Positions 2,119 through 61,412 of a DNA stretch of 64,000 bases are shown here, one piece after another; position 1 is the stretch's first letter; each line of letters starts with the position of its first letter. The stretch is from the IMG/VR virus record IMGVR_UViG_3300005077_000003, positions 96,001-160,000 of that record; one strand, written 5' to 3'. A program made the position numbers and the translations under genes. The DNA comes from a virus. Under the pieces are notes generated by a model. That model was not told the origin of the DNA, did no database searches, and was given only the letters and a program-made list of their open reading frames with translations.

Positions 2119-3273
2119 ATGAGAGCGCTTAAGACGTACGATCATATGATTGCAGACTCGCTAATTTATTTAGCTGAGAATACTGATATAACATATTTAT
2201 CAGAAGGATCGGTCGCGAGATCTCTAGTAGAAGCTACTATGCTAGAGATTGCTAAAGTACAAGAATATATAGCTGCTGGTTATGCCAATGTTTTTATTAA
2301 CTCAGCTACGGGGACATATCTTGATCTTATAGGGGAGATGGTTGGGACAGCCAGACTTACCAGTGCTAAGTCATCAGTTTCAGCAGAAGATAAAAATATT
2401 AAGTTTAGCGTGGTTTCTGGCGTATTAAGGGACAAATTCCCTCACCCAACTGATTCTACATTAGGACAAATTCCGGCTGGAATTATAATACAAACGTCAG
2501 ATGGTGCAATAAAATTCATTACTTCTGCTGCGATAACCTTCCCAGGAGGCGCCACAGAAGTCTTTGTAAGCGCAGAAGCGGAGGATTATGGCTCCATATA
2601 TAACATAGGTAAATACAGGCTAAATACGCATGATGGGCCGTCTGGAGTAAGCGTCACTAATCTATACCCTATAAGCAATGGCGGATCAGAAGAGAGTGAT
2701 GCCAACTATAGATATAGGCTAAGCAATATATTTGCTGCAGCTCCTTCTTCAAATGCGACATCTATAAGATTAGCCGTAGCTGGGATACCAGATGTTTCGC
2801 GCGTCATTTTAAATGAGTACTCAAGAGGAGCTGGCACTTTTGATGCTATGCTAATTCCTATTGGTAATAAGGTAAGCTCCAGAGCCAGAAGCTTGGCTCA
2901 AGCAGCCGTAAATCACGCATCTGCATTTGGTGTAAGTGCATTTGTAACAGAACCATCTTATTTGCCATTCAAAATAACAATACAATTAATACCAGCTAAT
3001 GGTGCGACAGCAGGTACTGTGGATGTTAATAGAATTAGTGCTAAAAATGCAGTACTTAATTATATGGAAACCATCCCCATTGGTGGAGAGCTTATAATAA
3101 ATAGGCTCCGCGCCGCAGTTATTGACAGCGTAATAAGCCAAATAAAAGACATAAAGATTATTGATATATGCTTAGAAGGTCGTTCTCGCGTAATTAGAAA
3201 TTATCAGCTAGAAAGAAACCAGCTGTTCACACCAGACACAGAATCAGGCAGCGAAGCTGTTGTTATAGTATGA
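2119..3273 (+). CDS. Baseplate J-like protein
   Basis: Motifs ATGTYLDLIG, VSAEAEDYGSIYNIG and NGGSEESDANYRYR (the GGxDxEsD..YR.R pattern of Baseplate_J). Confidence 0.88.
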   Translation: MRALKTYDHMIADSLIYLAENTDITYLSEGSVARSLVEATMLEIAKVQEYIAAGYANVFINSATGTYLDLIGEMVGTARLTSAKSSVSAEDKNIKFSVVSGVLRDKFPHPTDSTLGQIPAGIIIQTSDGAIKFITSAAITFPGGATEVFVSAEAEDYGSIYNIGKYRLNTHDGPSGVSVTNLYPISNGGSEESDANYRYRLSNIFAAAPSSNATSIRLAVAGIPDVSRVILNEYSRGAGTFDAMLIPIGNKVSSRARSLAQAAVNHASAFGVSAFVTEPSYLPFKITIQLIPANGATAGTVDVNRISAKNAVLNYMETIPIGGELIINRLRAAVIDSVISQIKDIKIIDICLEGRSRVIRNYQLERNQLFTPDTESGSEAVVIV

Positions 3274-41874: not shown

Positions 41875-42588
41875 ATGACACAAGACCCACCAAAAGATCA
41901 TAGAGATTTTGCTAGATGGTTTGTAAAAGAGTATTCTTCACAACTATATAAATCTATTTCCCGCAGGTTAATACCTAATAGGTATTCTATAGATGATGTA
42001 AAACATTATATGATAGAGAGAATACTAGACATCCTAGATAAGCGCGAACAAAGAGGCAACCCAATAGAGGAGCCAAAGACTTATTTTCGAAAGCTTATCC
42101 CATATTGGTGTGTAGAATTCCAACGCATGCATGGGTTCATATACTCTTTACCTAAAAGGCCAAGGGATGCTAACGCAGAAAAAGATATAGGACAGCACGG
42201 GTTCGTATATCTTAATTCTGATTATAATGTTGACGAGAATAATTCTAACAATGAACATGCAATACAAACATCATATATAGAATGCAGCTTCAACGAACCA
42301 ATAAAATATCTTAACCAATATAAAGTAGTTGGAAATGATCCTGATGAGATATCTCCTGCGTGGGAAGTTCTTATGGGAGCCTTAAAAGAAGAAGAGGCTG
42401 ATATTATATCATGTTTATTTAGATATAACTTAACGGTCCCACAAGCAGCCAAGAAGCTTGGTATAGCTGTATCTACGGCCTATCAAAGGAAGGAACGAGC
42501 ATTAAATATACTTAGTGGATATATAGTAGCAAATACTAGTATTAACGATATAAGCTGGATTACGTTAAAAGGATTAACTAATGGTTAA
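41875..42588 (+). CDS. Sigma-70 family (ECF-like) RNA polymerase sigma factor
   Basis: Region-2-like helices (TYFRKLIPYWCVEFQR) and a region-4 HTH, ALKEEEADII...LTVPQAAKKLGIAVSTAYQRKERAL. Confidence 0.7.
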   Translation: MTQDPPKDHRDFARWFVKEYSSQLYKSISRRLIPNRYSIDDVKHYMIERILDILDKREQRGNPIEEPKTYFRKLIPYWCVEFQRMHGFIYSLPKRPRDANAEKDIGQHGFVYLNSDYNVDENNSNNEHAIQTSYIECSFNEPIKYLNQYKVVGNDPDEISPAWEVLMGALKEEEADIISCLFRYNLTVPQAAKKLGIAVSTAYQRKERALNILSGYIVANTSINDISWITLKGLTNG

Positions 42589-42693: not shown

Positions 42694-42729
42694 AAAAAAA
42701 TTAGGGAGCCAAAATTGGCTCCCTTTTTT
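42694..42729. terminator. Bidirectional Rho-independent terminator
   Basis: A7 tract, AGGGAGCCA/TGGCTCCCT stem, T6 tract; lies between the converging virion and sugar operons. Confidence 0.85.
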
Positions 42730-42950: not shown

Positions 42951-44084
42951 TTATTCAAAGCACTCTGAAAGAGCTTTTTTTATAGTGGCAATATCTTCTT
43001 CTGTCATATATGCGTGTGTTCCAATATGCACTCCATGATTTCCTACATATTCGGCATTTGGAAACTCGCCTAGCTTATGATTCATAAATTCATATGCTAT
43101 ATGTTGAGTAGGAATGCAGCCAAAATTTCTTTTCCACTCTATATTATATTTGTCTAATATCGTTGTTAGGTTACTTACCTGTTTGTTGTCTTTTAGTGTT
43201 ATACTAAAGCCATGAGGACATACAGAATATCCTTCAGGCTCTATGCTAAAATATGCTAAATCAGTAAATTGTTTTGTATAGTTTACAAGATTATACCATA
43301 CTTCCTTTCTTTTAGAAAAAATATCACTGAAATTTTTAATGGAACTTATACCTAAGGCTGCTTCCATATCATTCATCTTAGAATTATAACCCACTCTAAG
43401 ATGCGAAAAATATAAGCTATCATGTATTCTACCATGAGACCTGGTAGATACAACTGAATTATATACCGTATCACTATTGGTAGATACCATTCCTCCTTCA
43501 GCAGTGCATATTAGGTGAGCAACATAGTAACTAAATGCTGCACCATAGCTTTCTTGGCCAATATATACAGGTCCTCCATAGTTATTAGTGTAAGTAGCTC
43601 CATGTGCTTCACAGGCGTCCTCAAACACAATTAAATTGTGCTTGTTAGCAATTTCTAGTATTTTATTCATATTGCAGGGAAGCCCCATAGTATGTACTGC
43701 TAGTATTGCTCTGGTTTTATTTGTAATTGCTGCTTCTATTAGATCCTCGTTTATATTAAGAGTATCTCTTCTTATATCTACAAAAACAGGAGTAAATCCA
43801 GCTGTTAATACAGCATTAGTAGACGCTATAAAAGAAAGTGCTGGAACAATCACTTCATCTCCTCGTTTAGCCCCAAAGTCATATAACGAAGAGACTAGAT
43901 TAAGTACTGCATCTGTACCTGAAGAAACTGCTGCGCTATATTTATAATTAAATATAGTGTTCCATTTTTTTTCAAACTCCTTTACCTTAGGTCCCATAGT
44001 AACCCAGTTATTTTCTATACATTCTTGTATAGAACTAATGACATCATTGTCTATAGATAATTTACCAAAATTAATTTTTTTCAT
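42951..44084 (-). CDS. colD: DegT/DnrJ-fold PLP enzyme with His in place of the catalytic Lys: GDP-4-keto-6-deoxymannose 3-dehydratase (ColD-like)
   Basis: AVSSGT, EDACEAHGA and FSYYVAHLICTAEGG. The His is six residues before EGG, where aminotransferases have Lys; adjacent to gmd and fcl. Confidence 0.72.
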   Translation of the reverse strand: MKKINFGKLSIDNDVISSIQECIENNWVTMGPKVKEFEKKWNTIFNYKYSAAVSSGTDAVLNLVSSLYDFGAKRGDEVIVPALSFIASTNAVLTAGFTPVFVDIRRDTLNINEDLIEAAITNKTRAILAVHTMGLPCNMNKILEIANKHNLIVFEDACEAHGATYTNNYGGPVYIGQESYGAAFSYYVAHLICTAEGGMVSTNSDTVYNSVVSTRSHGRIHDSLYFSHLRVGYNSKMNDMEAALGISSIKNFSDIFSKRKEVWYNLVNYTKQFTDLAYFSIEPEGYSVCPHGFSITLKDNKQVSNLTTILDKYNIEWKRNFGCIPTQHIAYEFMNHKLGEFPNAEYVGNHGVHIGTHAYMTEEDIATIKKALSECFE

Positions 44085-45039
44085 ATAGTTTTATCCAATA
44101 ATCTATCATTTCATCTAACATAGATTCAAAAGTATATTCAAATTGAAGATCTATAATTTCTTTTGTTTTACTAGTATCGCCACATAAAGTATAAAGTTCC
44201 TGTGGTCTAATATATCTCTGGTTTTGAGTAACATATTTATTATAGTCTAATTCTAACTTGCTAAATACATATTCACACATTTCTCTTACACTATGGGTTA
44301 TTCCAGTAGCACATAAATAATCACCAGGAGTAGGTAACTGCATAAGCTGATACATTACTTTTACGTAATCTTTAGCATGTCCCCAGTCGCGCTTAGCTTC
44401 TAGATTTCCTAATGCAAGTGTAGATTTTTTACCTTTAGCTATTTCAATAGCACCCTTTACTATTTTAGTACTAACGAAATTAGCTCCTCTTCTGACTGAT
44501 TCATGGTTAAACAGTATACCATTAGTAATATACATATTATATGCTTGCCTATAACATTTAGCAAGATTATACGCGGCTACTTTAGAGCAAGCATAAGGAC
44601 TTACTGGATGCATTGGAGTCAGCTCAGTTTGCATTTTATCAGTAGAATTGCCAAACATCTCTGATGATGCAGCATTATATATCTTTACATGGGGACATAC
44701 TAACTTAACTGCCTCCAGTAAATTTAGTGTTCCAACTGCGTTTGTTTGGTAAGTATAAGTAGGCTTTATAAAACTAACATTAACATGTGATTGTGCTGCT
44801 AAATGATATATAACATCTGGTTCATATTTTTGTAATAACGAGATTATAGATAAAACATCTGTTATATCTCCATACTCGATTGAAATATCTCCAATAATAT
44901 GATTTAGCCTTGCAGACTGGTTCTCTGAAACTGAGTTCCTTCGGACCATACCACATACTTGGCTACCCTCTTTTAATAAGAGCTCTGCCAAGTATGAACC
45001 ATCTTGGCCTGCTATACCTGTTATTAGGGCTTTTTTCAT
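44071..45039 (-). CDS. gmd: GDP-mannose 4,6-dehydratase
   Basis: ITGIAGQDGSYLAE, LAAQSHV, SSEMFG, SPYACSK, LFNHES, GNLEAKRDWGHAKDYV. Confidence 0.96.
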   Translation of the reverse strand: MKKALITGIAGQDGSYLAELLLKEGSQVCGMVRRNSVSENQSARLNHIIGDISIEYGDITDVLSIISLLQKYEPDVIYHLAAQSHVNVSFIKPTYTYQTNAVGTLNLLEAVKLVCPHVKIYNAASSEMFGNSTDKMQTELTPMHPVSPYACSKVAAYNLAKCYRQAYNMYITNGILFNHESVRRGANFVSTKIVKGAIEIAKGKKSTLALGNLEAKRDWGHAKDYVKVMYQLMQLPTPGDYLCATGITHSVREMCEYVFSKLELDYNKYVTQNQRYIRPQELYTLCGDTSKTKEIIDLQFEYTFESMLDEMIDYWIKLYEKN

Positions 45040-45980
45040 TATAATCTAATCTCTGTTCCCCTCAGCATACTATCTTGGAACCATTCTATACTTTTTGTAA
45101 GTGCTTCTTTCATATCTGTATACTTAAAGTCTGGTAGAATACTATCAAATAGTGTTCTATTTGATCTTCTAAACATTTGACCATTTGGCTTTGAACTGTC
45201 AAAAACAATATTTTTATACCCATATATTTTGGCTACTAAGTTAGCCATATGGCTAATTCTATATTCTCCTTCGCCAGGAATTAATAACAATTCTGGAAGA
45301 ATATCGTTATTAATTTTCTTTTCTGTTATATCCAATACAGCCCTAGCTAAGTCATGAGAATAAATAAATTCTCTTGTTGGTTCTCCCGTACCCCAGACAA
45401 CAAATGGTTTATTGTCTCGCTGAGCCTCATAGCATTTACGTATTAAACTTGGCATAACATGTCCCAAAGTTAAGTCATAATTATCATGTTCTCCAAATAC
45501 ATTGCCTGGGATAACTGTCATATAGTTTGTTCCAAATTGTTTGTTATAAGCATGTATTTGTATATCTACCATGCGCTTAGTATAAGCATAAACATAGTGG
45601 AATGAAGCTGGAGGACTATCGTGGAGCTTGCTTTCTTCTAAGGTTTCTAGTTCACCAGGGAAGGCACAATTCGATCCAAATGCAATTACATTTGGTATGT
45701 TATTTATACGTGCTGATTCAATTACATTAGTATTAATTAAAATATTATCTCTAAATAATTCCCCAGAGTAATGCATGTTTCTATATATGCCTCCTACTCT
45801 GGCAGCAGCATGTATTATAGCATCAGCATCTTTATGTAGTAAGCAAATATTATTTGCTACAGCTGGATCTCGTAGATCACATTCTCTGGGTATTGGAACC
45901 ATATCATGGCCGCGCTTGATTCCGTTTTCTAATATTGCACTACCAGCTAATCCTTTAGGTCCCGTAAGTAAAATTTTCAT
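45039..45980 (-). CDS. fcl: GDP-4-keto-6-deoxymannose 3,5-epimerase/4-reductase (Fcl/ColC type)
   Basis: HAAARVGGI, GSNCAFP (catalytic Cys), YAYTKR (YxxxK), DNYD...GHVMPSLI (catalytic His), WGTGEPTREF. Confidence 0.88.
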   Translation of the reverse strand: MKILLTGPKGLAGSAILENGIKRGHDMVPIPRECDLRDPAVANNICLLHKDADAIIHAAARVGGIYRNMHYSGELFRDNILINTNVIESARINNIPNVIAFGSNCAFPGELETLEESKLHDSPPASFHYVYAYTKRMVDIQIHAYNKQFGTNYMTVIPGNVFGEHDNYDLTLGHVMPSLIRKCYEAQRDNKPFVVWGTGEPTREFIYSHDLARAVLDITEKKINNDILPELLLIPGEGEYRISHMANLVAKIYGYKNIVFDSSKPNGQMFRRSNRTLFDSILPDFKYTDMKEALTKSIEWFQDSMLRGTEIRL

Positions 45981-46585
45981 ATTTTTTGTGCCTCAACATT
46001 TAATGACATTAATATACCATTTACTTTGTCAAAGTTAGGAAGATAAGATTGACTGTAATCATCTATCCACCAATGTTCTGTTTCTTTCCAGTCATATCTA
46101 CATATGTTTGTAAAGCCTACTAGTTCTAGTATCGACTTGAGTCTGTCAAAATCCCAGCTTGATCTATGGATTGCTGATTCGTATAGAGAACTGCCATGAA
46201 TAATATTCTGAAGAATAGTAAGATTCTTAGTAAGTAAGTAATAGTTTACTATTGTTGCGAAATCAGGCATAGCTAGTCTAAGAATACCTCCGTTTTCAAG
46301 AACAGAATACCAATTTGCTAAAGAAGAGTTTATTTCTTCTGGTTTTAAATGTTCAAGTACATGACAGGCATATATAAGCCCAACTGATCCTGGCTTATAT
46401 TTGGAAAGAGTTCTTATATCATCTACTATGTCTGGATTACAATTTTCACGAGAATCTATGTTTATAAATCCAGGAATCTTTTTTATCCCGCATCCTAGGT
46501 TTAGTTTAGGACCTCTAATTGTAAGTTTTTTAGAAGTTCCATCTATAATAGGACAGTCAGTTCCTTTTATATGCGCCTTTTCCAT
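45977..46585 (-). CDS. Class I SAM-dependent methyltransferase (Methyltransf_11-like)
   Basis: LNLGCG, NID, IYACHVLEH, GGILRLAMPD. Confidence 0.85.
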   Translation of the reverse strand: MEKAHIKGTDCPIIDGTSKKLTIRGPKLNLGCGIKKIPGFINIDSRENCNPDIVDDIRTLSKYKPGSVGLIYACHVLEHLKPEEINSSLANWYSVLENGGILRLAMPDFATIVNYYLLTKNLTILQNIIHGSSLYESAIHRSSWDFDRLKSILELVGFTNICRYDWKETEHWWIDDYSQSYLPNFDKVNGILMSLNVEAQKI

Positions 46586-47328
46586 ATCTTTGGTGACTCC
46601 TTCCAGTTGTCATAGGGGATTTGAATTTCGCGCTGCCCTGGGGCTGAATAAATTGAATTAAAAAGTGGTTTATCGTTCTCTATATCTGCTGCTACCAGTG
46701 GATGTGTAGCATCTCTTGGTTCCCAAAACGCATCCATGGCAAAAAATGGGGGGATAATAATAGATGCTCCATCCATCTGGGCTCTAAATCCCATGTCGAT
46801 TACGTTCATATTTGCTTGTTCAAATCTGCAATCTAGTCCACCAAGATATCTAAAATAGCTAGTTCTAAGGAATGAGATAAGAGGAATTGCCCAGTTTTGG
46901 GATATTCCTGGAAGTCTTAACGCTTCATGATACCATGCCATCCAGTATCTTTCATGGAAATGTTGTTCTTGTCCAGGCTTGGTAAAGTCTTCTACATATC
47001 TCATACATACAATGTCTTTCTCATTATTTCTTTCGTTAAGTATATCTGTAGTAGTTTGTATAGCATTTTGTCTTGCAATACAGTCATCTGGCATCCATGT
47101 TAAATATTTGCCTTCAACAAATAGCGAAGCTATTTGCAAAGCTCTCGCAGGAGATCCAAGTTCTCTAATATATTTTACATTATCTAGGTAAAGGTCTCCT
47201 GGCATTGCATACGGACCACAAAAAATTACTTCAAATGATTTATTTCCTACCGATTCTTTTAAAGAATTATACGTTCTTTGCCAGGCCTCATTTCTAATAC
47301 CAGGAACTATAATTGAAATATCTATCAT
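46567..47328 (-). CDS. GT-A fold (GT2-like) glycosyltransferase, tandem paralogue 5
   Basis: SIIVPGIR, WMPDDC, LGGLDCRFE, C-terminal NW...WKRR. Confidence 0.8.
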   Translation of the reverse strand: MIDISIIVPGIRNEAWQRTYNSLKESVGNKSFEVIFCGPYAMPGDLYLDNVKYIRELGSPARALQIASLFVEGKYLTWMPDDCIARQNAIQTTTDILNERNNEKDIVCMRYVEDFTKPGQEQHFHERYWMAWYHEALRLPGISQNWAIPLISFLRTSYFRYLGGLDCRFEQANMNVIDMGFRAQMDGASIIIPPFFAMDAFWEPRDATHPLVAADIENDKPLFNSIYSAPGQREIQIPYDNWKESPKIWKRRI

Positions 47329-48083
47329 ACTTTAAATCTCCTTTCCCATATTGCTGGGCTTTGTTTCCAGTTATAAAGATCTATACATTGAGGACGCTGC
47401 TTAGCTGTTAACTCAGAACCATAAATTGATCTAAACAATAATTGATCTGGACCATCAGATAAACAAATAGCAGCATGGTCTCCAGAGTGTCCTGGCATAT
47501 GGTCGTCATTACTGATTTCTGTATTAGATGGATAACAATTTCCTCCAGCTCTCTGAATACGGAATAGTAAGTCATGTATATTGTAGTTGATATGTTCAAA
47601 TCTGCAGTCATAACCACCAAATTGTTTAATAGTTGCTAAACTAAGGAGGGTATGACCGCAAATTTTCCAGCCTGGATCTATTCCAGGAAGCCGTAGGGCT
47701 TCATGGTACCACGCATTCCAGTTTTCAATAGGTGCCTCCTTACCAGTTCTTCCAGGAGATTCTCGATACCTCATTAGAATAACATCTAAATTTCCACACA
47801 TATTATCATATTGCTCGATAGCATTATCTATTGCTCCAGGAAGGAACAAAGCATCATCTACAGCATTAAAGTATAGTTCACCACTGCAATATAACAATCC
47901 TATTTGGGTAGCTCTTGATGGAGTTCCATAGTCTATAACACAAATAGTTTTGTCGTATACAGAAAAATTAGGACCTACTAATATAACTTCATATTCATAT
48001 TTGGTACAAGACTGAGCTAAGCTATCTAGCATAGCCGGAATAAGTGTGGATCTTATTGATGGAATTACAATACTAAGTTTCAA
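47325..48083 (-). CDS. GT2-like glycosyltransferase, tandem paralogue 4
   Basis: SIVIPSIR, AVDDA, FGGYDCRFE, NW...WERRF. Start reassigned to the TTG at 48083, downstream of an AGGAGG site. Confidence 0.8.
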   Translation of the reverse strand: MKLSIVIPSIRSTLIPAMLDSLAQSCTKYEYEVILVGPNFSVYDKTICVIDYGTPSRATQIGLLYCSGELYFNAVDDALFLPGAIDNAIEQYDNMCGNLDVILMRYRESPGRTGKEAPIENWNAWYHEALRLPGIDPGWKICGHTLLSLATIKQFGGYDCRFEHINYNIHDLLFRIQRAGGNCYPSNTEISNDDHMPGHSGDHAAICLSDGPDQLLFRSIYGSELTAKQRPQCIDLYNWKQSPAIWERRFKV

Positions 48084-48837
48084 TTTTAAACCTCCTGCTC
48101 CAAACCCGCTCAGCAGTTTGCCAATTATCGTATGGAACGTATATCCTTTCAAGGCAACTTTCGTCTTTATATATATCAATTAGTAGTTGCCAGTCATGAT
48201 TATTCTGAGCATCTTCAATTGGTCCATGATCTAGATGACCATGATCACAGTCTAATATAAAGTTATTTAACATAGTAACTTCACATCCTGACCTATATGA
48301 TCTCATCGCAAAATCAGCATGAGAACAACAGCCTACTTCAAATTTACAGTCAAGTCCGCCAAGTTCTATGAAGGTTTCCCTATGCATAATAGCAGGCTGA
48401 AACATCCACCATGACGGGTCTGCAAATTTAGCAAGCGGGCTATAGTTATTTAATCTAAAATATTGATCTGGTTGTTTTGTTTTTACTATACCATTTCTCC
48501 CTTCATAATATCTACCCACACATATTTTTTCTTTTGAGGATTCTTTTAGTAAAGTTATTGCCTCATCTAATGCATCTGGTAAATAGATTGCATCATCAGC
48601 TCCCCATGTAATTAAGTTTCCTTCTGCAAACAGAGTTCCTATTTGCTGTGCTCTAACAGCAGAGCCAAAATCCTTTATATATTTTATATTTGCATATTTA
48701 GTAAGAGGTTCAGGTAAAAGAAATGGACCAACAAATATAACTTCTATATCTTCTTGTGAAGTATTTTTTATTGACGCATAAAGAGCTTCCCAATTATATG
48801 GGCGTATTCCTGGGATAATAATAGACAATGTTGGCAT
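48073..48837 (-). CDS. GT2-like glycosyltransferase, tandem paralogue 3
   Basis: SIIIPGIR, GADDA, LGGLDCKFE, NW...WSRRF. Start reassigned to the ATG at 48837 (TAATG overlap). Confidence 0.8.
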   Translation of the reverse strand: MPTLSIIIPGIRPYNWEALYASIKNTSQEDIEVIFVGPFLLPEPLTKYANIKYIKDFGSAVRAQQIGTLFAEGNLITWGADDAIYLPDALDEAITLLKESSKEKICVGRYYEGRNGIVKTKQPDQYFRLNNYSPLAKFADPSWWMFQPAIMHRETFIELGGLDCKFEVGCCSHADFAMRSYRSGCEVTMLNNFILDCDHGHLDHGPIEDAQNNHDWQLLIDIYKDESCLERIYVPYDNWQTAERVWSRRFKIET

Positions 48838-49616
48838 TATTGAAATCTCCTTGACCAAACATGTTCTGCGTATTTCCAATTATTGAAATCAATTATAGTT
48901 CTTGTTGAGGGAATACTATAAAGTTGGTATAATATACGATAGTCTGTTTGTGGATTATTCATATCATCTACCACTGTTACTGGATCATGATCTCCATACA
49001 TTCCAGCTGAACCAGGAGCCCAATCACACATTAATACTGGGCCACAGGGAGTTCCTATATGTGCTCCATACTTTATAAGCCTTACAGTAAGATCTTGTCC
49101 ACCCCAGTTACATGTGTTAAAATTTATACAATCATACCCACCTATTGCATAAAACAAATCAGGAGACATGATAGAGTTAAGCATCATAGGCGCCCCATCT
49201 GGGATACCAGGAAGATTTAGATGTGGCCATCTTTTCATGTGCCAGTAATTCTCTGGCATGTTATTATTTCCTTCTCCATATCGAAGAGGAATTACGGTGT
49301 TTTCAGCTTCACCTTTTTCCCATTCAGAGAATGCTTCTTCTAACTTTCCTGGATGATATACTCCATCATCTGCCCCAAGAGTTATAGCTTTTCCTTCGCA
49401 GAACATGGCTGCAATTTGAGCACCACGAGATACTGATCCAAAGTCTCTTATATATTTAAAGTTTTTGAATTCAATCATATCTTTTTGTGGTGGAAAAGGG
49501 CCACATATGATTAATTCAAAACTATATTTTCCTATTGATGGGATAATACTATCGTAATATCTTTTCCATAGTTGTGGTCTAATGCCTCCAAGGAATATAG
49601 ACAGATCTGGCTTCAT
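48837..49616 (-). CDS. GT2-like glycosyltransferase, tandem paralogue 2
   Basis: SIFLGGIR, GADDG, IGGYDC, NW...WSRRF. Confidence 0.8.
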   Translation of the reverse strand: MKPDLSIFLGGIRPQLWKRYYDSIIPSIGKYSFELIICGPFPPQKDMIEFKNFKYIRDFGSVSRGAQIAAMFCEGKAITLGADDGVYHPGKLEEAFSEWEKGEAENTVIPLRYGEGNNNMPENYWHMKRWPHLNLPGIPDGAPMMLNSIMSPDLFYAIGGYDCINFNTCNWGGQDLTVRLIKYGAHIGTPCGPVLMCDWAPGSAGMYGDHDPVTVVDDMNNPQTDYRILYQLYSIPSTRTIIDFNNWKYAEHVWSRRFQ

Positions 49617-50386
49617 TTGAACCTCCTAGCCCATACGCTTGGGGCGTTTTTCCAGTTATTAATAGGAATTTTTATAATAGGAATATAGTCTGGACTATTA
49701 TATTTAGTTCTAAATGCTGGTTCGTCCTCTTCGGTCTGTGCGTAATGAATAGGTGCATGATCTCCTGTGGTACCTGGCATATGGGTAATATCTAAAATAA
49801 CTTCATTAGTAAAAATTATCTTTGCAGCATCTTGTTGAGCTCTTATACTAAAGTCAACAAAGGCCATGGCAGTACCTTGAAATACAGAATCAAGTCCACC
49901 AAGTGATCTCATATATTCTGTTTTTATCATAGAGGTAGGAAGAAATACATAACTGTCATCTATGTTATGTGAAGATATGCCAGCATGAATATTTATATGG
50001 CATTCGTTGTAACTGTAAATACGAGCAGATTCATGTGCTACCATTCCTAAAATAAATTTAGGTTCTTGTTTTATAGTGTTTTCAAATATTGTTATGCATT
50101 GTGATAGTAAAGTTGGTCTAAATAATCCATCATCAGTAACATCTATTAAAATTTCTCCTTCTACCATCTCGAGTCCAATATTAAAACACCTTGTAGGAGA
50201 TCCAAAGTCCCTAACTAATTTTATGTTTTTATATTGCTCTAATTCTTGTGGTAACAAATAAGGAGATACTATAATAAGTTCAAATGAATTGTTTCCTATT
50301 GCATTTATTAATGATGTAAATACATTTACCCAATTTTGGGGCCTAATACCAGGCATTACAAATGAAACTTTAGGTTTATCATACAT
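49613..50386 (-). CDS. GT2-like glycosyltransferase, tandem paralogue 1
   Basis: SFVMPGIR, VTDDG, LGGLDSVF, NW...WARRF. Confidence 0.8.
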   Translation of the reverse strand: MYDKPKVSFVMPGIRPQNWVNVFTSLINAIGNNSFELIIVSPYLLPQELEQYKNIKLVRDFGSPTRCFNIGLEMVEGEILIDVTDDGLFRPTLLSQCITIFENTIKQEPKFILGMVAHESARIYSYNECHINIHAGISSHNIDDSYVFLPTSMIKTEYMRSLGGLDSVFQGTAMAFVDFSIRAQQDAAKIIFTNEVILDITHMPGTTGDHAPIHYAQTEEDEPAFRTKYNSPDYIPIIKIPINNWKNAPSVWARRFK

Positions 50387-51293
50387 TATTTAAAATCTTT
50401 GACCAGAACGGCACTGGTGAGTAGTCTTCTAAATACCTAAGAAGACCTGCGGCAGCTATCTTATTTCGTTCTTCCTCGTGCATTGTGTAATATTCAATTT
50501 TTTCTAAAAGATCTTTGGGAGTAGTATATTCTACATACTCTTTATCTACATGTAGCCTTTCTCTTGTAAAAGGATTCTCTCCTTCTAAAAGTAGACAGCC
50601 ACAAGCCAAAGATTCAAAGACTCTATTTTTTAGTTGCAATTTCCCTGATGGAGAACTTGGCATACCAATAGATATAGCAGATCTTCGTAATAATTTAGCG
50701 TACTCTTCTATTGGCATTTTAGATATTCTTTTGCCAGGAGAATACGTAACTGGAATCTTAGAAAGAGACAAGGCCTGAAGATAAGGTATTCTTTGAGAAT
50801 AAGTAGACCCCATAAAAGAAACTGGGATATCTTTTGCTTCAGGGTAGAATAAACTAGGACATTGCGGTGCCGGTAAAGAAAGTAGTCCACCCCTTGCTAA
50901 GTTAGTTAATTTTTCATCTGGAAAATCAAAGCACGTATGAAGATCTGCATACGGATTTGTGTCATTCACAACCTTATAAATCCAAGGCCATACAGTATCC
51001 TGCCATAAGAATATTTTCTTTCCACCTATCTTTGCTAAAGATCTTGTAGTAGGATTTGAGGGACAGTCTCCAATATAAGTAAAAGCGTAATAGTCTGGAT
51101 GACTTGTTCTTTCTAATAAAACGTCATCAATATGTTTACCATTTATGAAAGATTCATCTGGGTAAAGGCATTCAACAGAATCAAATAGTTTGCATGCTAT
51201 TGCTGATTTATAGTATGTTTGATATGTATCAGATAGCAACATAGCAGGGTTGCCATCACACCAACGTTCTGAAACTAATATTAGACTGGACAT
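50379..51293 (-). CDS. GT-B glycosyltransferase, CgeB/Glyco_trans_1_2-like
   Basis: VSFMGS...RIPYL, NRVFESLACGCLLL, EYVEY...DLLEKIEYY...ERNKIAAAG. Confidence 0.8.
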   Translation of the reverse strand: MSSLILVSERWCDGNPAMLLSDTYQTYYKSAIACKLFDSVECLYPDESFINGKHIDDVLLERTSHPDYYAFTYIGDCPSNPTTRSLAKIGGKKIFLWQDTVWPWIYKVVNDTNPYADLHTCFDFPDEKLTNLARGGLLSLPAPQCPSLFYPEAKDIPVSFMGSTYSQRIPYLQALSLSKIPVTYSPGKRISKMPIEEYAKLLRRSAISIGMPSSPSGKLQLKNRVFESLACGCLLLEGENPFTRERLHVDKEYVEYTTPKDLLEKIEYYTMHEEERNKIAAAGLLRYLEDYSPVPFWSKILNNV

Positions 51294-53107: not shown

Positions 53108-53647
53108 TTATTTTTCGTTGTAGTAATCTCCATATTCTACTAGAATAGAAGAATTTCCATGAGTCGCAGCATAATATGCATTTCTATATGTACTAAATAT
53201 CTCTTCTGGCTCTTTTAGTTCATATATTTTTATATTATCACACATAGACCTAAATGCTTCTGAGTAATTACCTACGTGTTGGTGTTGTGGATGTATAGGT
53301 CTCTCTGAGCCTATACTTACTTTTATAATAACTCCTGGCATAAATGGCCTATCAGCCATTACTGGTATTTTATCTAAATGATTTACTATTTGATTTGTTG
53401 CTAGCAAAAGAAAGTTCCAGCGTGGATACACACTAATAGGTATCATTCCATCAAGAGCAAGTCCAATAGATAGCCCCATCTGGAACTCTTCGCATACGGG
53501 CATTTCTAATAATTTTTCTTTTGGAATATCAGCAAAAGTATTTGACATAGCAGTCCCTGGATATGCTACTGCCTGACCTAAGAAGATAACTTCTTTCTTT
53601 TCTGCAAGCCAATCCATGGTTCGCTTCATTTCATCAACATATTTCAT
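53108..53647 (-). CDS. TPP-dependent dehydrogenase E1 beta-like subunit, pyrimidine-binding domain only (179 aa)
   Basis: FLGQAV, LLEMPVCEEFQMGLSIGLAL, RWNFLLLATNQIVNHLDK. Confidence 0.85.
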   Translation of the reverse strand: MKYVDEMKRTMDWLAEKKEVIFLGQAVAYPGTAMSNTFADIPKEKLLEMPVCEEFQMGLSIGLALDGMIPISVYPRWNFLLLATNQIVNHLDKIPVMADRPFMPGVIIKVSIGSERPIHPQHQHVGNYSEAFRSMCDNIKIYELKEPEEIFSTYRNAYYAATHGNSSILVEYGDYYNEK

Positions 53648-54252
53648 TAGAATTGTACCCTCTTACCTGCGCCAGCATGGGGATATTTATTTTTATAATC
53701 ATAATATATTATATGTTTTAAGTCTTTATATGGGAGTTCTTTCATTCCCCAAGTATTCTTTGTGTCAGTGCAGACAGAGAGACCGTTATTTTCCACTATA
53801 AATGTTATAGGTAAATTAAAGTTTTCTACATATGTAATACACTCATGGAATTGTCCTGTCACATAAGCCATGTCACCTAGAAAACAATATACATGAGTAT
53901 CTGCACTTTTGCGCTTTATTGATAAAGCTACACCTGTAGCAATAGAAAGACAGCCTGTAACAATACCAGAAGAGAAGATATTATAGTTTGGATATTGTAA
54001 AGCAATAGATCTACCATTCAATATGTCTTTCTTGAGTTCTTCTGGAGGAACTCCTTTAAGAAGACATTGGTAGTGACTACGCCAGGTACAAAAAACCCAA
54101 TCTTGTTCACGTACTTTTTGAAAAATCTCAATCATCTTCTCTTCATTATTAGAGTAAAGATGGATTGGTGCTCTTATGTGAGCGGCATCAAATTCGGCGG
54201 CAATATCCGTCTCAAAATCTATTAGATCTTGTGCTGTTAGGTTTGTAATCAT
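53647..54252 (-). CDS. TPP-dependent dehydrogenase E1 alpha-like subunit, short (201 aa)
   Basis: IHL, DWVFCTWRSHY, GRSI, SSGIV, TPP motif GDM...ENN. Confidence 0.85.
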   Translation of the reverse strand: MITNLTAQDLIDFETDIAAEFDAAHIRAPIHLYSNNEEKMIEIFQKVREQDWVFCTWRSHYQCLLKGVPPEELKKDILNGRSIALQYPNYNIFSSGIVTGCLSIATGVALSIKRKSADTHVYCFLGDMAYVTGQFHECITYVENFNLPITFIVENNGLSVCTDTKNTWGMKELPYKDLKHIIYYDYKNKYPHAGAGKRVQF

Positions 54253-56453: not shown

Positions 56454-57398
56454 CTATATATTTGTATAAGAAGTAAGAGTTCTGCTAATAATTTCATAGC
56501 ATTTTAATAGTTCGGCTATTCCAGAATCCAAAGTATAAATTGGCTTCCATCCAAGTGATTCAATTTTTTTATTAGATACTATATAGTCTCTTTTATCGGG
56601 ATCAGTTGCAATATTATCTTTCTGTATAGAGAACTCTGGAATAAATTTTTTAATTCTTTCTGCAAGTTGCAATTTAGTTATGTTAGTATCAGATAATCCT
56701 ATATTATAAGTTTGACCCGACATTTTATCATAGTTTTTTATTGCAAACTTAAATGCCCTAGCTACATCTTTTACATGGATATAATTTCTATTAAATTCCC
56801 ATTCAAATAGTACAATATACTTGTCTCGCATAGCTTTTAATGTAAAGTCATTTACCAATAAGTCTATACGCATTCTAGGAGATGAACCAAATACTGTTGC
56901 AAGTCTAAAAGATACACCTCCAGTAGATAATATATGGTCTTCTGCCATACATTTTGTTTTTCCATAATGGCTAATTGGATTAAGGGGTGTTTCTTCTGTA
57001 CAAAATACACCCTTTTCTCCTACGCCATACCCGCTATTTGTATTAGGATATATAATTTTTGTTTCAGCCCGTTTATGTTCAAGGATAGCCTTAATATGAT
57101 TATAATTAACATCAAGAGCTAATTGCTTATCCCGCTCACAAGCTGGAAACCCGACTATAGCTGCTAAAGGTATGATTATATCAGCCTTGTTTACATAACT
57201 GAGCAATTTCTTGATATCACGAACATCTCCATATACAAATGTAAAATCTTCGTTATAACAAAGGTCCATAAATGGAGTTTGCTTATACATAAGATTGTCA
57301 TATACAATAACTTTATGTCCAGCATTAATTAGCTCATATGTGAGCGTAGAACCTAAATATCCAGCTCCACCAGTAATCAAAACCTTAAAACTCGACAT
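56454..57398 (-). CDS. NAD-dependent epimerase/dehydratase (extended SDR)
   Basis: ITGGAGYLGS, GDVRD, LAAIVG, YGKTK (YxxxK), FRLATVFG. Confidence 0.9.
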   Translation of the reverse strand: MSSFKVLITGGAGYLGSTLTYELINAGHKVIVYDNLMYKQTPFMDLCYNEDFTFVYGDVRDIKKLLSYVNKADIIIPLAAIVGFPACERDKQLALDVNYNHIKAILEHKRAETKIIYPNTNSGYGVGEKGVFCTEETPLNPISHYGKTKCMAEDHILSTGGVSFRLATVFGSSPRMRIDLLVNDFTLKAMRDKYIVLFEWEFNRNYIHVKDVARAFKFAIKNYDKMSGQTYNIGLSDTNITKLQLAERIKKFIPEFSIQKDNIATDPDKRDYIVSNKKIESLGWKPIYTLDSGIAELLKCYEIISRTLTSYTNI

Positions 57399-58152
57399 AA
57401 GTTACTCCTCTTTTTTGTATTACCTTTGTTGCGCATTCGTTTGCATATTTTATCGCAGCAATTATATCTAAATTTAATAGGTATTTTATAGTTAATGCCG
57501 CTAGGAATGTATCGCCTGCTCCTACACAGTCTTTCATTGGTACAGATGGAACGTGAAACTCTTCATTTTGATATATACATCCTTTATCCCCTCTAGTTAC
57601 AATTACATTATGAGCCAGTATTGGATTTAAATCAAACACATGTTTAGTATTATTATATTCACTTGTATTGAGTTTTATGAAGGTAATGTCATTACACCAT
57701 CTGCCCAAGATTTTTTTTGTGTCCAAGAATGTAATTGGATAATAAACAGCTATTTTTGATATATCAGATTCTGTTAAAAATCCTTTGCAGTAATCTGATA
57801 TTATAACAGCCTTAGCATTTGGATAGCTATCAAATAGCTTATTAATATCACAGTGTTCTACTTTATCATCACCCTCATCTACTCTTAGCAACATACTATT
57901 AGTACGTTCTTCTACATACCTGGTCTTTGATATCTCTTTCCAATTATCATTAGTAATAATACCAGGTTTAGTATTTATATTGTTTATTTTTAGCAATGAC
58001 TCTAGATTTAATAAAGTATTCATAGCCATACCTGGATTGCTTTTCTGGCTAACTTTATTAAATACTAATGCTGGAGCTTCTGGGGCAATTCTATTACATG
58101 GTCCATAGATAAAATTATCTATACAACTTTCTCCAATGACAACTATTTCCAT
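57385..58152 (-). CDS. PfkB-family sugar kinase resembling the HldE/RfaE heptose-7-phosphate kinase domain
   Basis: VIGESCID...RIAPEAPALV, ISDYCKG, VTRGDKG, DCVGAGDTF. Confidence 0.82.
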   Translation of the reverse strand: MEIVVIGESCIDNFIYGPCNRIAPEAPALVFNKVSQKSNPGMAMNTLLNLESLLKINNINTKPGIITNDNWKEISKTRYVEERTNSMLLRVDEGDDKVEHCDINKLFDSYPNAKAVIISDYCKGFLTESDISKIAVYYPITFLDTKKILGRWCNDITFIKLNTSEYNNTKHVFDLNPILAHNVIVTRGDKGCIYQNEEFHVPSVPMKDCVGAGDTFLAALTIKYLLNLDIIAAIKYANECATKVIQKRGVTYVEF

Positions 58153-58156
58153 TTTA

Positions 58157-58546
58157 TTACCAACTTATTTCCCAATCTTTGAATTCACTAGCTAAACAAT
58201 CAACTTTGTAGTCTTTACGCCCACCAATTGATTCTTGTATAATATTTTTCGCAGTATTTCTTATGCCATTAAGGCCATGTGTTAGTTTTAGGTTTCCATC
58301 GGAAAGCCCTTTTCTAACATTAGACTCATTATGCCATATATGTAAATTCATTTGCGACAAAACTATTATCGCACGAATCATTTCTGATTGTATACCTAGT
58401 AGTTCTAAATCATGTAGTATATCTTTTATTTCCTGTGCATATTCTTCTTTATGCTCAGGAATAAAGACTTCTTTTAATTGTAAGATAGATAACCTATCTA
58501 TCAATTCTGAAACAGTTGGTAAATATTTTCTTTTGTTTTCATCCAT
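58157..58546 (-). CDS. Hypothetical helical protein in the sugar cluster (about 129 aa)
   Basis: KYLPTVSELIDRLSILQLKE...; start reassigned to the ATG just after the upstream stop. Confidence 0.65.
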   Translation of the reverse strand: MDENKRKYLPTVSELIDRLSILQLKEVFIPEHKEEYAQEIKDILHDLELLGIQSEMIRAIIVLSQMNLHIWHNESNVRKGLSDGNLKLTHGLNGIRNTAKNIIQESIGGRKDYKVDCLASEFKDWEISW

Positions 58547-58551
58547 AATAT

Positions 58552-59511
58552 TTATAATATACTCGTACAATGTTTTACTAATAATTCTGCATTATTACTT
58601 GGTAAATGTCTTTTTATAAAAGATTCTTTTATATATGATAGTGTTTTTTCGTCTTTAAAAGTAGTTGCCTCGGTGATTTTCTGTACCCACTCATCAATGT
58701 TATTGATATCGTCAACAACAAAGCCATATTGGGCAATATTATCATGTTTAACTGCACATCTATTAGATACAACTACTGGCAACCCAGCAACCTGTGCTTC
58801 AACAATAGTCATCCCATATGTTTCTGTTCTAAATGGAGATACTAATAATGATACATTATTATACATGCTGCCGTAATGCTGTTGACCAATTATATTGATA
58901 TTATTATTAACAATAACTGGTTCAAAGTCTTTATATCCAACAATATTAAATTGTAATGACGGCATTTTAGATGCTATATTGTTAAGAATATCAAATCCTT
59001 TTACAAATGATACTCTAGACATTAGTATAGGACCATCTATGGCTCTACAATTATTAAAGTTCGAAAAATCTATACTTGGATATACTACTTCAGTCTTATA
59101 ATTAAATTGGTCTTCTAATACAGATTTGAAATAATTAGAATTAGCAATAACTAAATCAGGTTTAAAGTTCTTATTTTGTAATTCACAATTAGAGCATTCT
59201 TTTGAACAAAAAGCAGTTATGCTTGGATATCCACCCTTTGAACAGATATGTTCATATGAATGAGCCATATAAACTAGCGGCTTATTTAATAAGCATGCAA
59301 CCTGTTCTCCATATGGAGTCCAGTTTAGTTGTGTAATAATAATATCAGAATCAACAAACTTTCTTAAACAAGAAAAGTCATTTAAATTAGTATTAGTAAT
59401 TGTATAGCAAATATGTCCACTATTTCTTAGTGCATTAATTAAGTTAATAGATGTTATTTCTGCACCACCAACTGGAATAGTTAGGTTATATGCTATATAA
59501 AGTATTTTCAT
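58552..59511 (-). CDS. GT-B (GT4-like) glycosyltransferase
   Basis: GGAEI, IANS, KGFD, ETYGMTIVEAQVAGLPVVVS. Confidence 0.88.
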   Translation of the reverse strand: MKILYIAYNLTIPVGGAEITSINLINALRNSGHICYTITNTNLNDFSCLRKFVDSDIIITQLNWTPYGEQVACLLNKPLVYMAHSYEHICSKGGYPSITAFCSKECSNCELQNKNFKPDLVIANSNYFKSVLEDQFNYKTEVVYPSIDFSNFNNCRAIDGPILMSRVSFVKGFDILNNIASKMPSLQFNIVGYKDFEPVIVNNNINIIGQQHYGSMYNNVSLLVSPFRTETYGMTIVEAQVAGLPVVVSNRCAVKHDNIAQYGFVVDDINNIDEWVQKITEATTFKDEKTLSYIKESFIKRHLPSNNAELLVKHCTSIL

Positions 59512-60219: not shown

Positions 60220-60408
60220 TTATATTATATGTACGTCAATTGATTCTATATACCAATCTCTTTCTATAAAAGAGTGGTCTAATTCTGGTTCAGCTTCATT
60301 GGCAGCAGTCATCAATTGTTTTTCTGTTGGTTCATCAGAAAAATAAAAGTCTACATTGTATTCGTACCAATGTGCTTTGTATATAACATATGTTTTATCG
60401 TCATTCAT
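60220..60408 (-). CDS. Hypothetical acidic protein (62 aa)
   Basis: ATGA overlap with the GuaB/GuaC-family gene. Confidence 0.55.
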   Translation of the reverse strand: MNDDKTYVIYKAHWYEYNVDFYFSDEPTEKQLMTAANEAEPELDHSFIERDWYIESIDVHII

Positions 60409-61412
60409 AGTCTTCCAGCTCCATGGGGCATACTTTCAAGTACTCCATTGCTAGTAATTTCTGCCCAAATTGCGCGCTCCCTTATTTGGTGTAAATTATT
60501 AGCACCACAATAAGTCATACCACTACGGATACCACCCATTAGGTCTTTTATTACATCTTCTACTGGACCTTTAGCTTGTACTGTAATCTCTATACCTTCA
60601 GCAGTTTTCCAGTCATTCATAGAACCCATGTAATCTTCTTGGGCTTCTTTAGAAGCCATGCCGCGAAACAGCTTAAATAGGCTCCCGCTATCATCTCTAA
60701 TAACATTGCCAGGAGTTTCATCTGTACCTGCTAACATGCCACCAAGCATCACCAGATCAGCTCCAGCAGCGAAAGCTTTAACTGCATCACCAGGATACCT
60801 AATCCCGCCATCTGCTATTAGGAGACAAGTAGTTCGCCTACATTCCTGAATAGCAGTGAATTGAGGCAGACCAAACCCCGTCTTCATTCTAGTTGAACAT
60901 ACGGATCCAGGGCCGATGCCGACCTTAATAGCGTCAGCCCCAGATCCAGCTAAATATTCTGCGCCAGCTTGTGTGCATACATTGCCAGCTATTATAAAAC
61001 AACTATCATCTAATGATTTTATTTTGCCTATTAGTTCACCTACTGCTTTAGAATGTCCGTGAGCTACATCTACACAAAAGAATTTGGCGCCTACTTCATG
61101 TAATGCGGCAAATCTATTTAGTTCTTCATTAGTACCTATAGATATAACTGCTTCGGCAGATTCCGCACGTACTCTTTGGTACATGCTTATATTATCTTCT
61201 ATTGAGCAGAACCTATGAAGAAAGCCAAGGCCGCCCAGCTTTCTTATTTTGATAGCCATCTTACTACCAGTAATGGTATCCATATTGGATGACAGTACTG
61301 GTATATCTAAGATTAGACTACCAAAAGATACAGAGGTATCCGGCAACTTTCTGCTAGGTATATTATTATATCTTGGTAGTAAAGTTATATCATCAAATGA
61401 TAGTGCTTTCAT
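60405..61412 (-). CDS. guaC: IMPDH/GMP reductase family enzyme without CBS domains, probably a GMP reductase
   Basis: [45 protein letters not shown]. The flap reads WKTAEG and lacks the Arg-Tyr dyad of IMPDH. Confidence 0.7.

Follow-up and report, generated by a model that had tools for sequence, protein, structure and literature searches.

The window analysed here is a stretch of 64,000 nucleotides, bases 96001-160000 of IMG/VR record IMGVR_UViG_3300005077_000003 (177,611 bp, approximately 92% complete), from a large uncultured marine phage whose contractile-tail genes include one that matches phrog_6 (baseplate wedge). At the end of an island of glycan genes on its minus strand, three genes stand in tandem and encode an Fcl-type epimerase/reductase (P0003), a GDP-mannose 4,6-dehydratase (Gmd, P0002) and a DegT-fold enzyme (P0001) with a histidine at the catalytic lysine site; the reading frames of P0001 and P0002 overlap by 14 nucleotides and those of P0002 and P0003 by 1 nucleotide (coordinates in Table 1). 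The initial annotation of the window had described the three genes as a complete GDP-L-colitose pathway, with P0001 and P0003 as the counterparts of ColD and ColC.

P0001 matches the Pfam family PF01041 (DegT_DnrJ_EryC1) over its full length (E value 2.6e-84; residues 11-372 on profile positions 3-359 of 360) and carries the motif SYYVAH190LICTAEGG (translation segments AAFSYYVAHLICTAEGG and FSYYVAHLICTAEGG). In HMMER and MAFFT alignments, His190 falls on the Schiff-base lysine of the Caulobacter perosamine synthase, FSFFGNKIITTGEGG, and it likewise aligns with the lysine of Escherichia coli O157 Per (TFSFFGNK) and, in ColD of E. coli O55 (FSSFYSHH), with His188. Translation, the codon (CAC) and the alignments bore out in every detail the histidine described in the initial annotation, and alignment with ColD, RfbH-like and Per sequences put histidine, not lysine, at the pyridoxal phosphate (PLP) site. 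The Ala-His pair is kept in all but one of the 119 P0001 homologues listed, the exception being a sequence with no match to the motif, and His190 is invariant in a 28-sequence alignment of the family, as are the cofactor residues Asp156, Glu159 and Ser185. Because of this conservation, His190 is neither a sequence error nor a one-off substitution.

The matches of P0002 identify it as a true GDP-mannose 4,6-dehydratase, with E values of 1e-71 to 4e-79 against the Gmd structures in the Protein Data Bank (PDB), compared with 3e-35 against GDP-heptose 4,6-dehydratase, and of 7e-107 against the Pfam family GDP_Man_Dehyd. The best match of P0003 is human FX, a GDP-fucose synthase (4e-59), with E. 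coli Fcl at 1e-40; its identity is 32% with E. coli Fcl and only 27% with ColC of E. coli O55, the two E. coli enzymes being 39% identical to each other. These values weaken the assignment of the third enzyme as a ColC, P0003 being nearer to the fucose synthases. Ser103, Cys105, Tyr131, Lys135 and His174 of P0003 occupy the Fcl catalytic positions in the alignment, which we take to be Ser107, Cys109, Tyr136, Lys140 and His179 in the E. coli numbering. The tandem itself, with an fcl homologue that retains its Cys and His, was as first described: the frames overlap, the Gmd is a true one and Cys105 and His174 are in place. The virus genome encodes only three extended short-chain dehydrogenases/reductases (SDRs), namely the Gmd, the Fcl-like enzyme and P0123, a homologue of PDB entry 6VO6, so that P0003 is the sole SDR of the reductase type.

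A separate clade of histidine-type DegT enzymes

For comparison, ColD and ColC of E. coli O55 were taken from NC_013941; gmd DNA queries of E. coli genomes matched only fucose-type O-antigen loci. P0001 is 30% identical to ColD (E value 1.8e-38) and 33% identical to E. coli O157 Per (6e-48), its best-scoring characterised relative. Identities among the ColD enzymes that have been characterised, from E. coli, Yersinia and Campylobacter jejuni, are 62-67% (PMC10440746). In the alignment, ColD, an RfbH-like sequence and the enzymes of phages S-CAM7 and S-H68 have in common a His-His doublet and, following the HG(W) motif, an insert that is Cys-rich in the E1 type, and P0001 has A-H-L and, like Per, no insert. 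A maximum-likelihood tree separated three clans, the classical histidine-type dehydratases (support 95/93), the lysine-type aminotransferases (100/98) and the P0001 family (100/99), which meet at a branch of essentially zero length; the trifurcation is unresolved and the tree therefore cannot tell whether the histidine arose once or twice. A position of P0001 inside the ColD/E1 clade is ruled out by the tree and by the absence of both the insert and the HH doublet, and orthology with ColD by the 30% identity, the separate clade, the A-H-L sequence and, again, the missing insert. As far as sequences can define it, the P0001 family is a third, uncharacterised, insert-free clade of the histidine type on a perosamine-synthase-like scaffold.

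ColD (WbdK; found in E. coli O55/O111 and Yersinia pseudotuberculosis, with heptose orthologues in C. jejuni HS:5/HS:11) resembles P0001 in its DegT fold, the histidine at the lysine site, the ED-x-C-E and S-x4-H-x5-EGG motifs, the lack of an Fe-S Cys loop and a GDP-sugar setting with Gmd and an Fcl-type reductase as neighbours. It differs in that its HG motif is followed by an insert of approximately 16 residues and its sequence is SHH, where P0001 has no insert and AHL, and the conserved partner of the P0001 clade is of the C4-dehydrogenase type rather than a 4,6-dehydratase. E1 (RfbH/DdhC/AscC) and SpnQ share with P0001 both the exchange of lysine for histidine and the alanine preceding it, but P0001 is without their Cys-rich insert, has no E3-type reductase nearby and lies in a GDP context rather than a CDP or dTDP one. 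In particular, the four-Cys [2Fe-2S] insert of the E1/SpnQ type is absent from P0001 in the alignment, and no E3-like reductase gene was found among the recurrent neighbours of the family loci. Per/RfbE shares the scaffold without an insert and, in the context of this window, would probably share the substrate as well, the Gmd product, but it possesses the catalytic lysine (FFGNK) and makes a 4-amino sugar.

Four cysteines of P0001, C158, C193, C289 and C323, are widely conserved in the family (in EDACE, AHLxCC, CPHGFS and NFGC, respectively), and led us to consider an E1-like Fe-S mechanism. We rejected it as unsupported because the equivalent of C158 is also present in the cluster-free ColD, the other cysteines lie outside the position of the E1 loop and the reductase partner is absent.

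A scan of viral contigs with the single P0001 protein gave only one distant relative, of the lysine type, and an alignment-based scan recovered the family. It occurs in 31 IMG/VR viral contigs, in DPANN archaea (Nanoarchaeota, Woesearchaeota, Pacearchaeota) and Methanoperedens, and in metagenome-assembled genomes of Nitrospirales, Terriglobia, Omnitrophota, Planctomycetes and Myxococcota, and within it the viral sequences group in one clade (99/99), with those of the DPANN archaea as its sister group. The homologues are named 'aminotransferase' in their sources, or 'dTDP-4-amino-4,6-dideoxygalactose transaminase' by JGI, and ColD of E. coli O55 itself is called a 'DegT/DnrJ/EryC1/StrS family aminotransferase' by PGAP, names which show that the automatic miscall foreseen in the initial annotation does occur.

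The conserved neighbour of the clade

In order to map the neighbourhood of the gene, six-frame open reading frames within 6 kb of the DegT-His gene were clustered for 108 loci. The SDR cluster that contains P0123 (c1, 6VO6-like) was a neighbour in 66 of these, Fcl-like SDRs in 58, an HddA-like GHMP kinase in 39, a B12-binding radical S-adenosylmethionine (SAM) enzyme in 37, a ManC/HddC-like guanylyltransferase in 23 and a 4,6-dehydratase-like gene in 18, of which only six were at least 41% identical to P0002. Taken together, c1 and the 4,6-dehydratase-like genes supply an SDR of the 4-keto-generating type at 75 of the loci. Thiamine diphosphate (ThDP) enzymes of the pyruvate dehydrogenase (PDH) E1/transketolase type, PfkB heptose-kinase-like genes, HAD genes and RmlC-like genes also recur, and the HddA-like kinase and HddC/ManC-like guanylyltransferase beside the cellular loci point to a GDP-linked heptose.

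P0123 matches PDB 6VO6/6VO8 at 2.6e-112 over residues 3-304. We presume that 6VO6 is the C4-dehydrogenase of GDP-D-glycero-D-manno-heptose, Cj1427 of C. jejuni, and our label 'Cj1427-like' has the same basis. Contig-wide, the 6VO6-like gene is present in 28 of 29 viral contigs and in all six near-complete genomes, and a true Gmd in only a few of the same contigs. The complete relatives G001, G002 and G014 contain the DegT clade without any Gmd, always with the 6VO6-like gene, and the closest relatives of P0001 (59% identity), in the complete 130-kb genomes L003 and L004, have neither a Gmd nor an Fcl-like gene; beside their DegT lie a ThDP enzyme resembling acetohydroxyacid synthase (AHAS) and YerE, a PanB-like enzyme, a radical-SAM/SPASM enzyme and a cupin. 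It is thus the 6VO6-like dehydrogenase, and not Gmd, that accompanies the P0001 clade as its conserved partner. A ThDP enzyme is encoded directly upstream of DegT in most viral loci.

A P0003-type Fcl (at least 40% identity) was found in exactly the contigs that have a true Gmd (G003, G020, G025 and G017), even where the two genes are 25-65 kb apart, and the two travel together as an accessory pair. The Fcl-Gmd-DegT order of the window is repeated in L024; in L005 the Fcl-Gmd pair is five genes from DegT, which there adjoins the 6VO6-like SDR and kinase genes.

Two observations on related islands may be added. Those of L003 (L003:4-2646) and L004 contain, near glycosyltransferases, a PanB-like ketopantoate hydroxymethyltransferase (3.5e-98) and a 631-aa acetolactate-synthase/YerE-like ThDP enzyme, which could be sugar C-branching enzymes or an auxiliary module for valine/pantothenate. 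A 98-aa Mpo1-like (DUF962) protein (cluster c19; L029:9976-10272 and related loci; 2.3e-28) is recurrent in viral sugar islands.

Proposed chemistry and competing explanations

P0001 is most likely an active vitamin-B6 enzyme that, to judge from its residues, would be unable to form the internal lysine aldimine. All characterised DegT-fold enzymes with histidine at this position (ColD, E1 and SpnQ) are sugar 3-dehydratases dependent on pyridoxamine phosphate (PMP), in which the histidine takes the C4' proton of PMP and the 3-OH is expelled (PMC8987622). Because of this precedent, the intact cofactor residues, the linkage to enzymes that form the C4 keto group of GDP-sugars and the lack of an E1 Fe-S loop or E3 partner, we consider P0001 to be, with good probability, a ColD-like, glutamate-recycled C3-dehydratase of a GDP-4-keto sugar. 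PMP would form a ketimine with the C4 keto group of the substrate, His190 would take the PMP C4' proton and the 3-OH would leave, giving a GDP-3-deoxy-4-keto sugar. Since both the Cys loop of the E1 type and a neighbouring E3-type reductase are missing, glutamate would then serve to restore PMP, as it does in ColD. Of the ColD-type reading in the initial annotation, what stands is the histidine swap, which is real, conserved and has a 3-dehydratase precedent; the 30% identity, the absence of the insert and the HH doublet and the separate clade speak against the remainder. What is new here is best described as a predicted insert-free, histidine-type sugar 3-dehydratase clade whose core partner is a C4-dehydrogenase.

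A precedent for this partnership comes from the Raushel laboratory, who obtained GDP-3-deoxy-4-keto-heptose in vitro from Cj1427 and a ColD-type C3-dehydratase, and found that the C. jejuni C3-dehydratase takes both 6-deoxy and 6-hydroxy substrates (PMC10680097). The combination was an artificial one and is not known as a natural pathway, whereas here the pairing is natural and conserved, involves a different dehydratase clade and is accompanied by ThDP and B12-radical-SAM enzymes. The island otherwise resembles the C. jejuni capsular GDP-heptose pathway (Cj1427, C3-dehydratase, epimerases and Cj1428-type reductases) in its 6VO6 homologue, its heptose-kinase-like gene and its Fcl-type reductase, and the conserved pairing of the 6VO6-like SDR with DegT-His suggests that the route through Cj1427 and a C3-dehydratase is used in nature.

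We therefore favour, at about even odds, a reading in which the dehydratase serves a core module of the GDP-heptose type, as would be the clade's conserved role, and possibly also intercepts the Gmd product. The Cj1427-like dehydrogenase would make the 4-keto substrate, and the 3-deoxy-4-keto product might then be C-branched by the ThDP enzyme and methylated by the B12-radical-SAM enzymes, or reduced. We infer the branching step from the biosynthesis of yersiniose, in which 3-dehydration by E1/E3 precedes branching at C4 by the ThDP-dependent YerE. As in that pathway, the 3-dehydratase is genetically coupled to a ThDP enzyme, and a 3-deoxy-4-keto sugar could accept a two-carbon branch; unlike it, the ThDP enzyme of the island is of a split PDH-E1/transketolase type (AHAS-like in L003) and the nucleotide is probably GDP. 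The accessory Gmd and Fcl-type pair in the same operon would make GDP-4-keto-6-deoxymannose and GDP-fucose. A dehydratase tolerant at C6 may divert part of the Gmd product to a colitose precursor, from which the single Fcl-type reductase could form a colitose-type 3,6-dideoxyhexose, and the sugars would be used by the island's glycosyltransferases. The chemistry, the substrates and the destination of the glycan are in this way read from the sequence features, homologies and co-occurrence described above.

GDP-colitose is consequently a possible and plausible product in this phage, but not an established one, and we lean slightly against its actually being made there. The coupling of the operon and the same Fcl-Gmd-DegT order in L024 favour a colitose branch; the co-occurrence data do not require it. 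The pathway that the initial annotation called complete is so only from GDP-mannose onward. A search of the virus genome found no nucleotidyltransferase (NTP_transferase), no GmhA-type isomerase and no cytidylyltransferase-like gene, so that the activated mannose, or heptose, must come from the host.

Several points weigh against the reading that we favour. The clade, the classical 3-dehydratases and the lysine aminotransferases form an unresolved trifurcation in the tree, so that the histidine could have arisen independently, with a bearing on the chemistry, and the clade has a single histidine (AHL) where ColD and E1 have HH. The identity of PDB 6VO6 with Cj1427 is, as stated, a presumption. 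Of the enzymes for heptose activation the virus encodes just a kinase; an isomerase, a phosphatase and a nucleotidyltransferase could not be recognised, and the adjacency of the genes in the window favours the Gmd route more than our favoured reading allows.

The claim of the initial annotation that no phage example was known is wrong at the genome level. The trio DNA gave no match by megablast against the phage collection, and searches of the literature for colitose or a 3-dehydrase in a phage or other virus brought up no paper on a pathway of this kind. However, tblastn with ColD against the cultured-phage collection matched 86 records, 54 of them Synechococcus phages. The genome of the cultured Synechococcus cyanomyovirus S-CAM7 (NC_031927) contains a tandem of gmd, an fcl/colC-like gene and a His-DegT gene, followed by a glycosyltransferase; its gmd product is 62% identical to E. 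coli Gmd, its fcl/colC-like product 48% identical to Fcl and 40% to ColC, and its DegT, with the motif FYFGHH..EGG, groups with ColD. In ACG-2014f, likewise a cultured cyanomyovirus of Synechococcus, gmd, an fcl-like gene and a His-DegT gene of the ColD/E1 clan are arranged as in S-CAM7. A phage-borne trio of the colitose type is thus not unprecedented. These trios resemble that of the window in being tandems of a true gmd, an fcl/colC-like gene and a histidine-type DegT gene followed by glycosyltransferases, but their DegT enzymes group with ColD and E1 (HH and insert) and their Fcl-like enzymes have identities of 48-51% with E. coli Fcl and 38-40% with ColC, which makes these trios a more canonical fit to the colitose model than that of the window. 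In the cultured Synechococcus phage S-H68 (L121:5881-7173) we also observed an E1/RfbH-type His-DegT enzyme with a Cys-rich insert (CYC...C), entered in GenBank as 'CDP-4-dehydro-6-deoxy-D-glucose 3-dehydratase'; its gene adjoins dTDP-glucose 4,6-dehydratase, RmlC-like and GT11 genes and is a candidate for an Fe-S-dependent route to a 3,6-dideoxyhexose in a phage.

It could be argued that the trio of the window is nevertheless a self-contained GDP-L-colitose pathway of Gmd, a ColD analogue and a ColC analogue, which would yield chiefly colitose while the remainder of the island makes other sugars. Translational coupling of the three genes, the shared order in L024, the genuine Gmd, the retention by P0003 of both the Cys/His pair for epimerisation and the Ser/Tyr/Lys triad for reduction, and the existence of ColD-clan trios of the same design in cyanophages all agree with this, as does the dependence of the virus on host nucleotide sugars, among which GDP-mannose would be a plausible host metabolite. 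We nonetheless think it unlikely, given that complete relatives (G001, G002 and G014) have the DegT clade without Gmd and always with the 6VO6-like gene, that the Gmd-linked members (the window and L024) form no subclade of their own in the tree, which excluded L005, and that in L005 the DegT gene lies five genes from the Fcl-Gmd pair and next to the 6VO6-like and kinase genes. Moreover, the P0003-type Fcl tracks Gmd and not DegT, as expected for a plain GDP-fucose pair, and P0003 is nearer to the fucose synthases than to ColC. GT11 is the colitosyltransferase type in E. coli O55, and no GT11 colitosyl/fucosyltransferase match was found in the virus genome, but the GT11 control also matched nowhere and is uninformative. 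The fidelity of the Gmd/P0003-type pair in G003, G020, G025 and G017, even at 25-65 kb, the joint presence of DegT and the 6VO6-like gene in 28 of 29 contigs and the closeness of P0003 to bona fide fucose synthases could equally mean that Gmd and the Fcl homologue make GDP-L-fucose only, that DegT-His acts only on the Cj1427-like product and that their adjacency is operon packing. This, too, we regard as improbable: ColD-type enzymes tolerate changes at C6 (PMC10680097), so that, with both enzymes made in one cell, the dehydratase would probably come across what Gmd produces and use it, and the virus is without the genes to make GDP-heptose.

There is also a small chance that P0001 is no dehydratase, but a slow PMP-dependent 4-aminotransferase, an enzyme of other PMP chemistry or an inactive paralogue. 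Like the Per-type aminotransferases, the clade has a scaffold without the insert; it scores better against Per than against ColD and is not joined to the classical dehydratases in the tree, and SpnQ without its reductase shows aminotransferase activity in vitro (PMC8987622). Inactivity is argued against by the strict conservation of the histidine and the cofactor residues over hundreds of sequences. We know of no catalytic aminotransferase of the DegT fold that is without the lysine. In addition, work on E1 H220K and on ColD indicates that the lysine is needed for transaminase turnover (PMC8987622).

Should the assignment as a C3-dehydratase hold, a whole clade of genes that are listed as 'aminotransferase' in metagenomes of phages, archaea and bacteria would turn out to encode deoxygenases, and the sugars predicted for many surface and virion glycans would change. 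It would also provide a natural source of GDP-3-deoxy-heptoses, so far made only by mixing C. jejuni enzymes in vitro, and would mean that marine phages invest approximately 16 kb in rare, possibly branched sugars. Colitose in a phage matters less by comparison, its chemistry being known and more canonical Gmd/ColD-type/Fcl trios being already present, unremarked, in cultured cyanophage genomes, where the claim would be easier to test. A bolder version, which we think rather unlikely, would make DegT-His and the Cj1427-like dehydrogenase the core of a natural, undescribed pathway to GDP-3-deoxy-4-keto-heptose (or hexose) and then, through the ThDP and B12-radical-SAM enzymes, to a carbon-branched, C-methylated higher sugar in surface or virion glycans of marine phages, DPANN archaea and many uncultured bacteria. 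The dehydratase would then be an independent, Per-derived invention of the histidine type, whose half-reaction from glutamate to 2-oxoglutarate might feed a 2-oxoglutarate-dependent recycling of its partner.

The surrounding island

The island occupies 16.5 kb of the minus strand, from 59511 down to 42951, and contains roughly eight glycosyltransferases. In the direction of transcription its genes encode a GT4 glycosyltransferase, a 137-aa protein, a PfkB kinase, the 6VO6-like SDR, a 239-aa GT2-like protein, a B12-radical SAM enzyme, the split ThDP enzyme, a KedN5-like B12-radical SAM enzyme, a glycosyltransferase, an unknown protein, four GT2-like paralogues, a methyltransferase, and finally Fcl, Gmd and DegT-His (Table 1).

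Table 1. Features of the glycan island and its downstream end (positions in the window)
Feature	Position	Strand	Remarks
Terminator-like hairpin, bidirectional	42703-42724	.	Between island end and convergent plus-strand genes; closes operon
P0001, 377 aa	42951-44084	-	DegT-fold PMP/PLP enzyme, His190 at Schiff-base Lys position; last gene of operon
His190 codon, CAC	43515-43517	-	Codon check
P0002, 322 aa	44071-45039	-	GDP-mannose 4,6-dehydratase (by sequence); S125-S126-E127 and Y149/K153 motifs
P0003, 313 aa	45039-45980	-	Fcl-type GDP-4-keto-6-deoxyhexose epimerase/4-reductase
SAM methyltransferase-like, 202 aa	45977-46585	-	Kept beside Fcl/Gmd pair in L005, L024, L029
Four paralogues of ~260 aa (cluster c30)	46567-49616	-	Weak GT2-like signal; probable glycosyltransferases
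257-aa unknown protein and 304-aa Glyco_trans_1_2 glycosyltransferase	49613-51293	-	Family match
B12-binding radical SAM enzyme, KedN5-like C-methyltransferase type, 608 aa	51281-53107	-	
Split ThDP enzyme, Transket_pyr-like (179 aa) and PDH-E1-alpha-like (201 aa)	53108-54252	-	Candidate C-branching enzyme
Second B12-binding radical SAM enzyme, 495 aa	54252-55739	-	
SDR P0123, 314 aa	56454-57398	-	Close homologue of PDB 6VO6/6VO8
PfkB kinase	57385-58152	-	Best NCBIfam match heptose-7-phosphate kinase (rfaE domain I)
137-aa protein (c12)	58157-58570	-	68-75% identity across at least 8 related viral contigs
GT4 glycosyltransferase, 319 aa	58552-59511	-	Upstream end of island

The 137-aa protein is more conserved than the surrounding enzymes and always adjoins the PfkB kinase-like or the DegT-His gene. 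It has no Pfam or NCBIfam match, and comparison by hhalign with nucleotidyltransferase, HAD and RmlC-like neighbours showed no relation, so that it was rejected as a hidden nucleotidyltransferase, phosphatase or epimerase. The window has the 6VO6-like SDR and the heptose-7-phosphate-kinase-like PfkB, yet the virus has no recognisable GmhA, phosphatase or nucleotidyltransferase, and the dehydrogenase might act on GDP-mannose. Just upstream of the island lies a gene of the inosine monophosphate dehydrogenase/GMP-reductase family (60405-61412, minus strand; 4.9e-97; phrog_9582), which may be linked to guanine-nucleotide supply.

Converging on the island is a 237-aa open reading frame (41875-42588, plus strand) with a sigma-70 region-4 match of 2.6e-05, possibly a phage sigma-like factor. 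At 2119-3273 on the plus strand, a baseplate J/wedge-like protein has its best cultured-virus matches in haloarchaeal myoviruses (approximately 27% identity); in contrast, the contig of one close relative, of the L003/L004 pair, has also been deposited within a Prochlorococcus single-cell genome.

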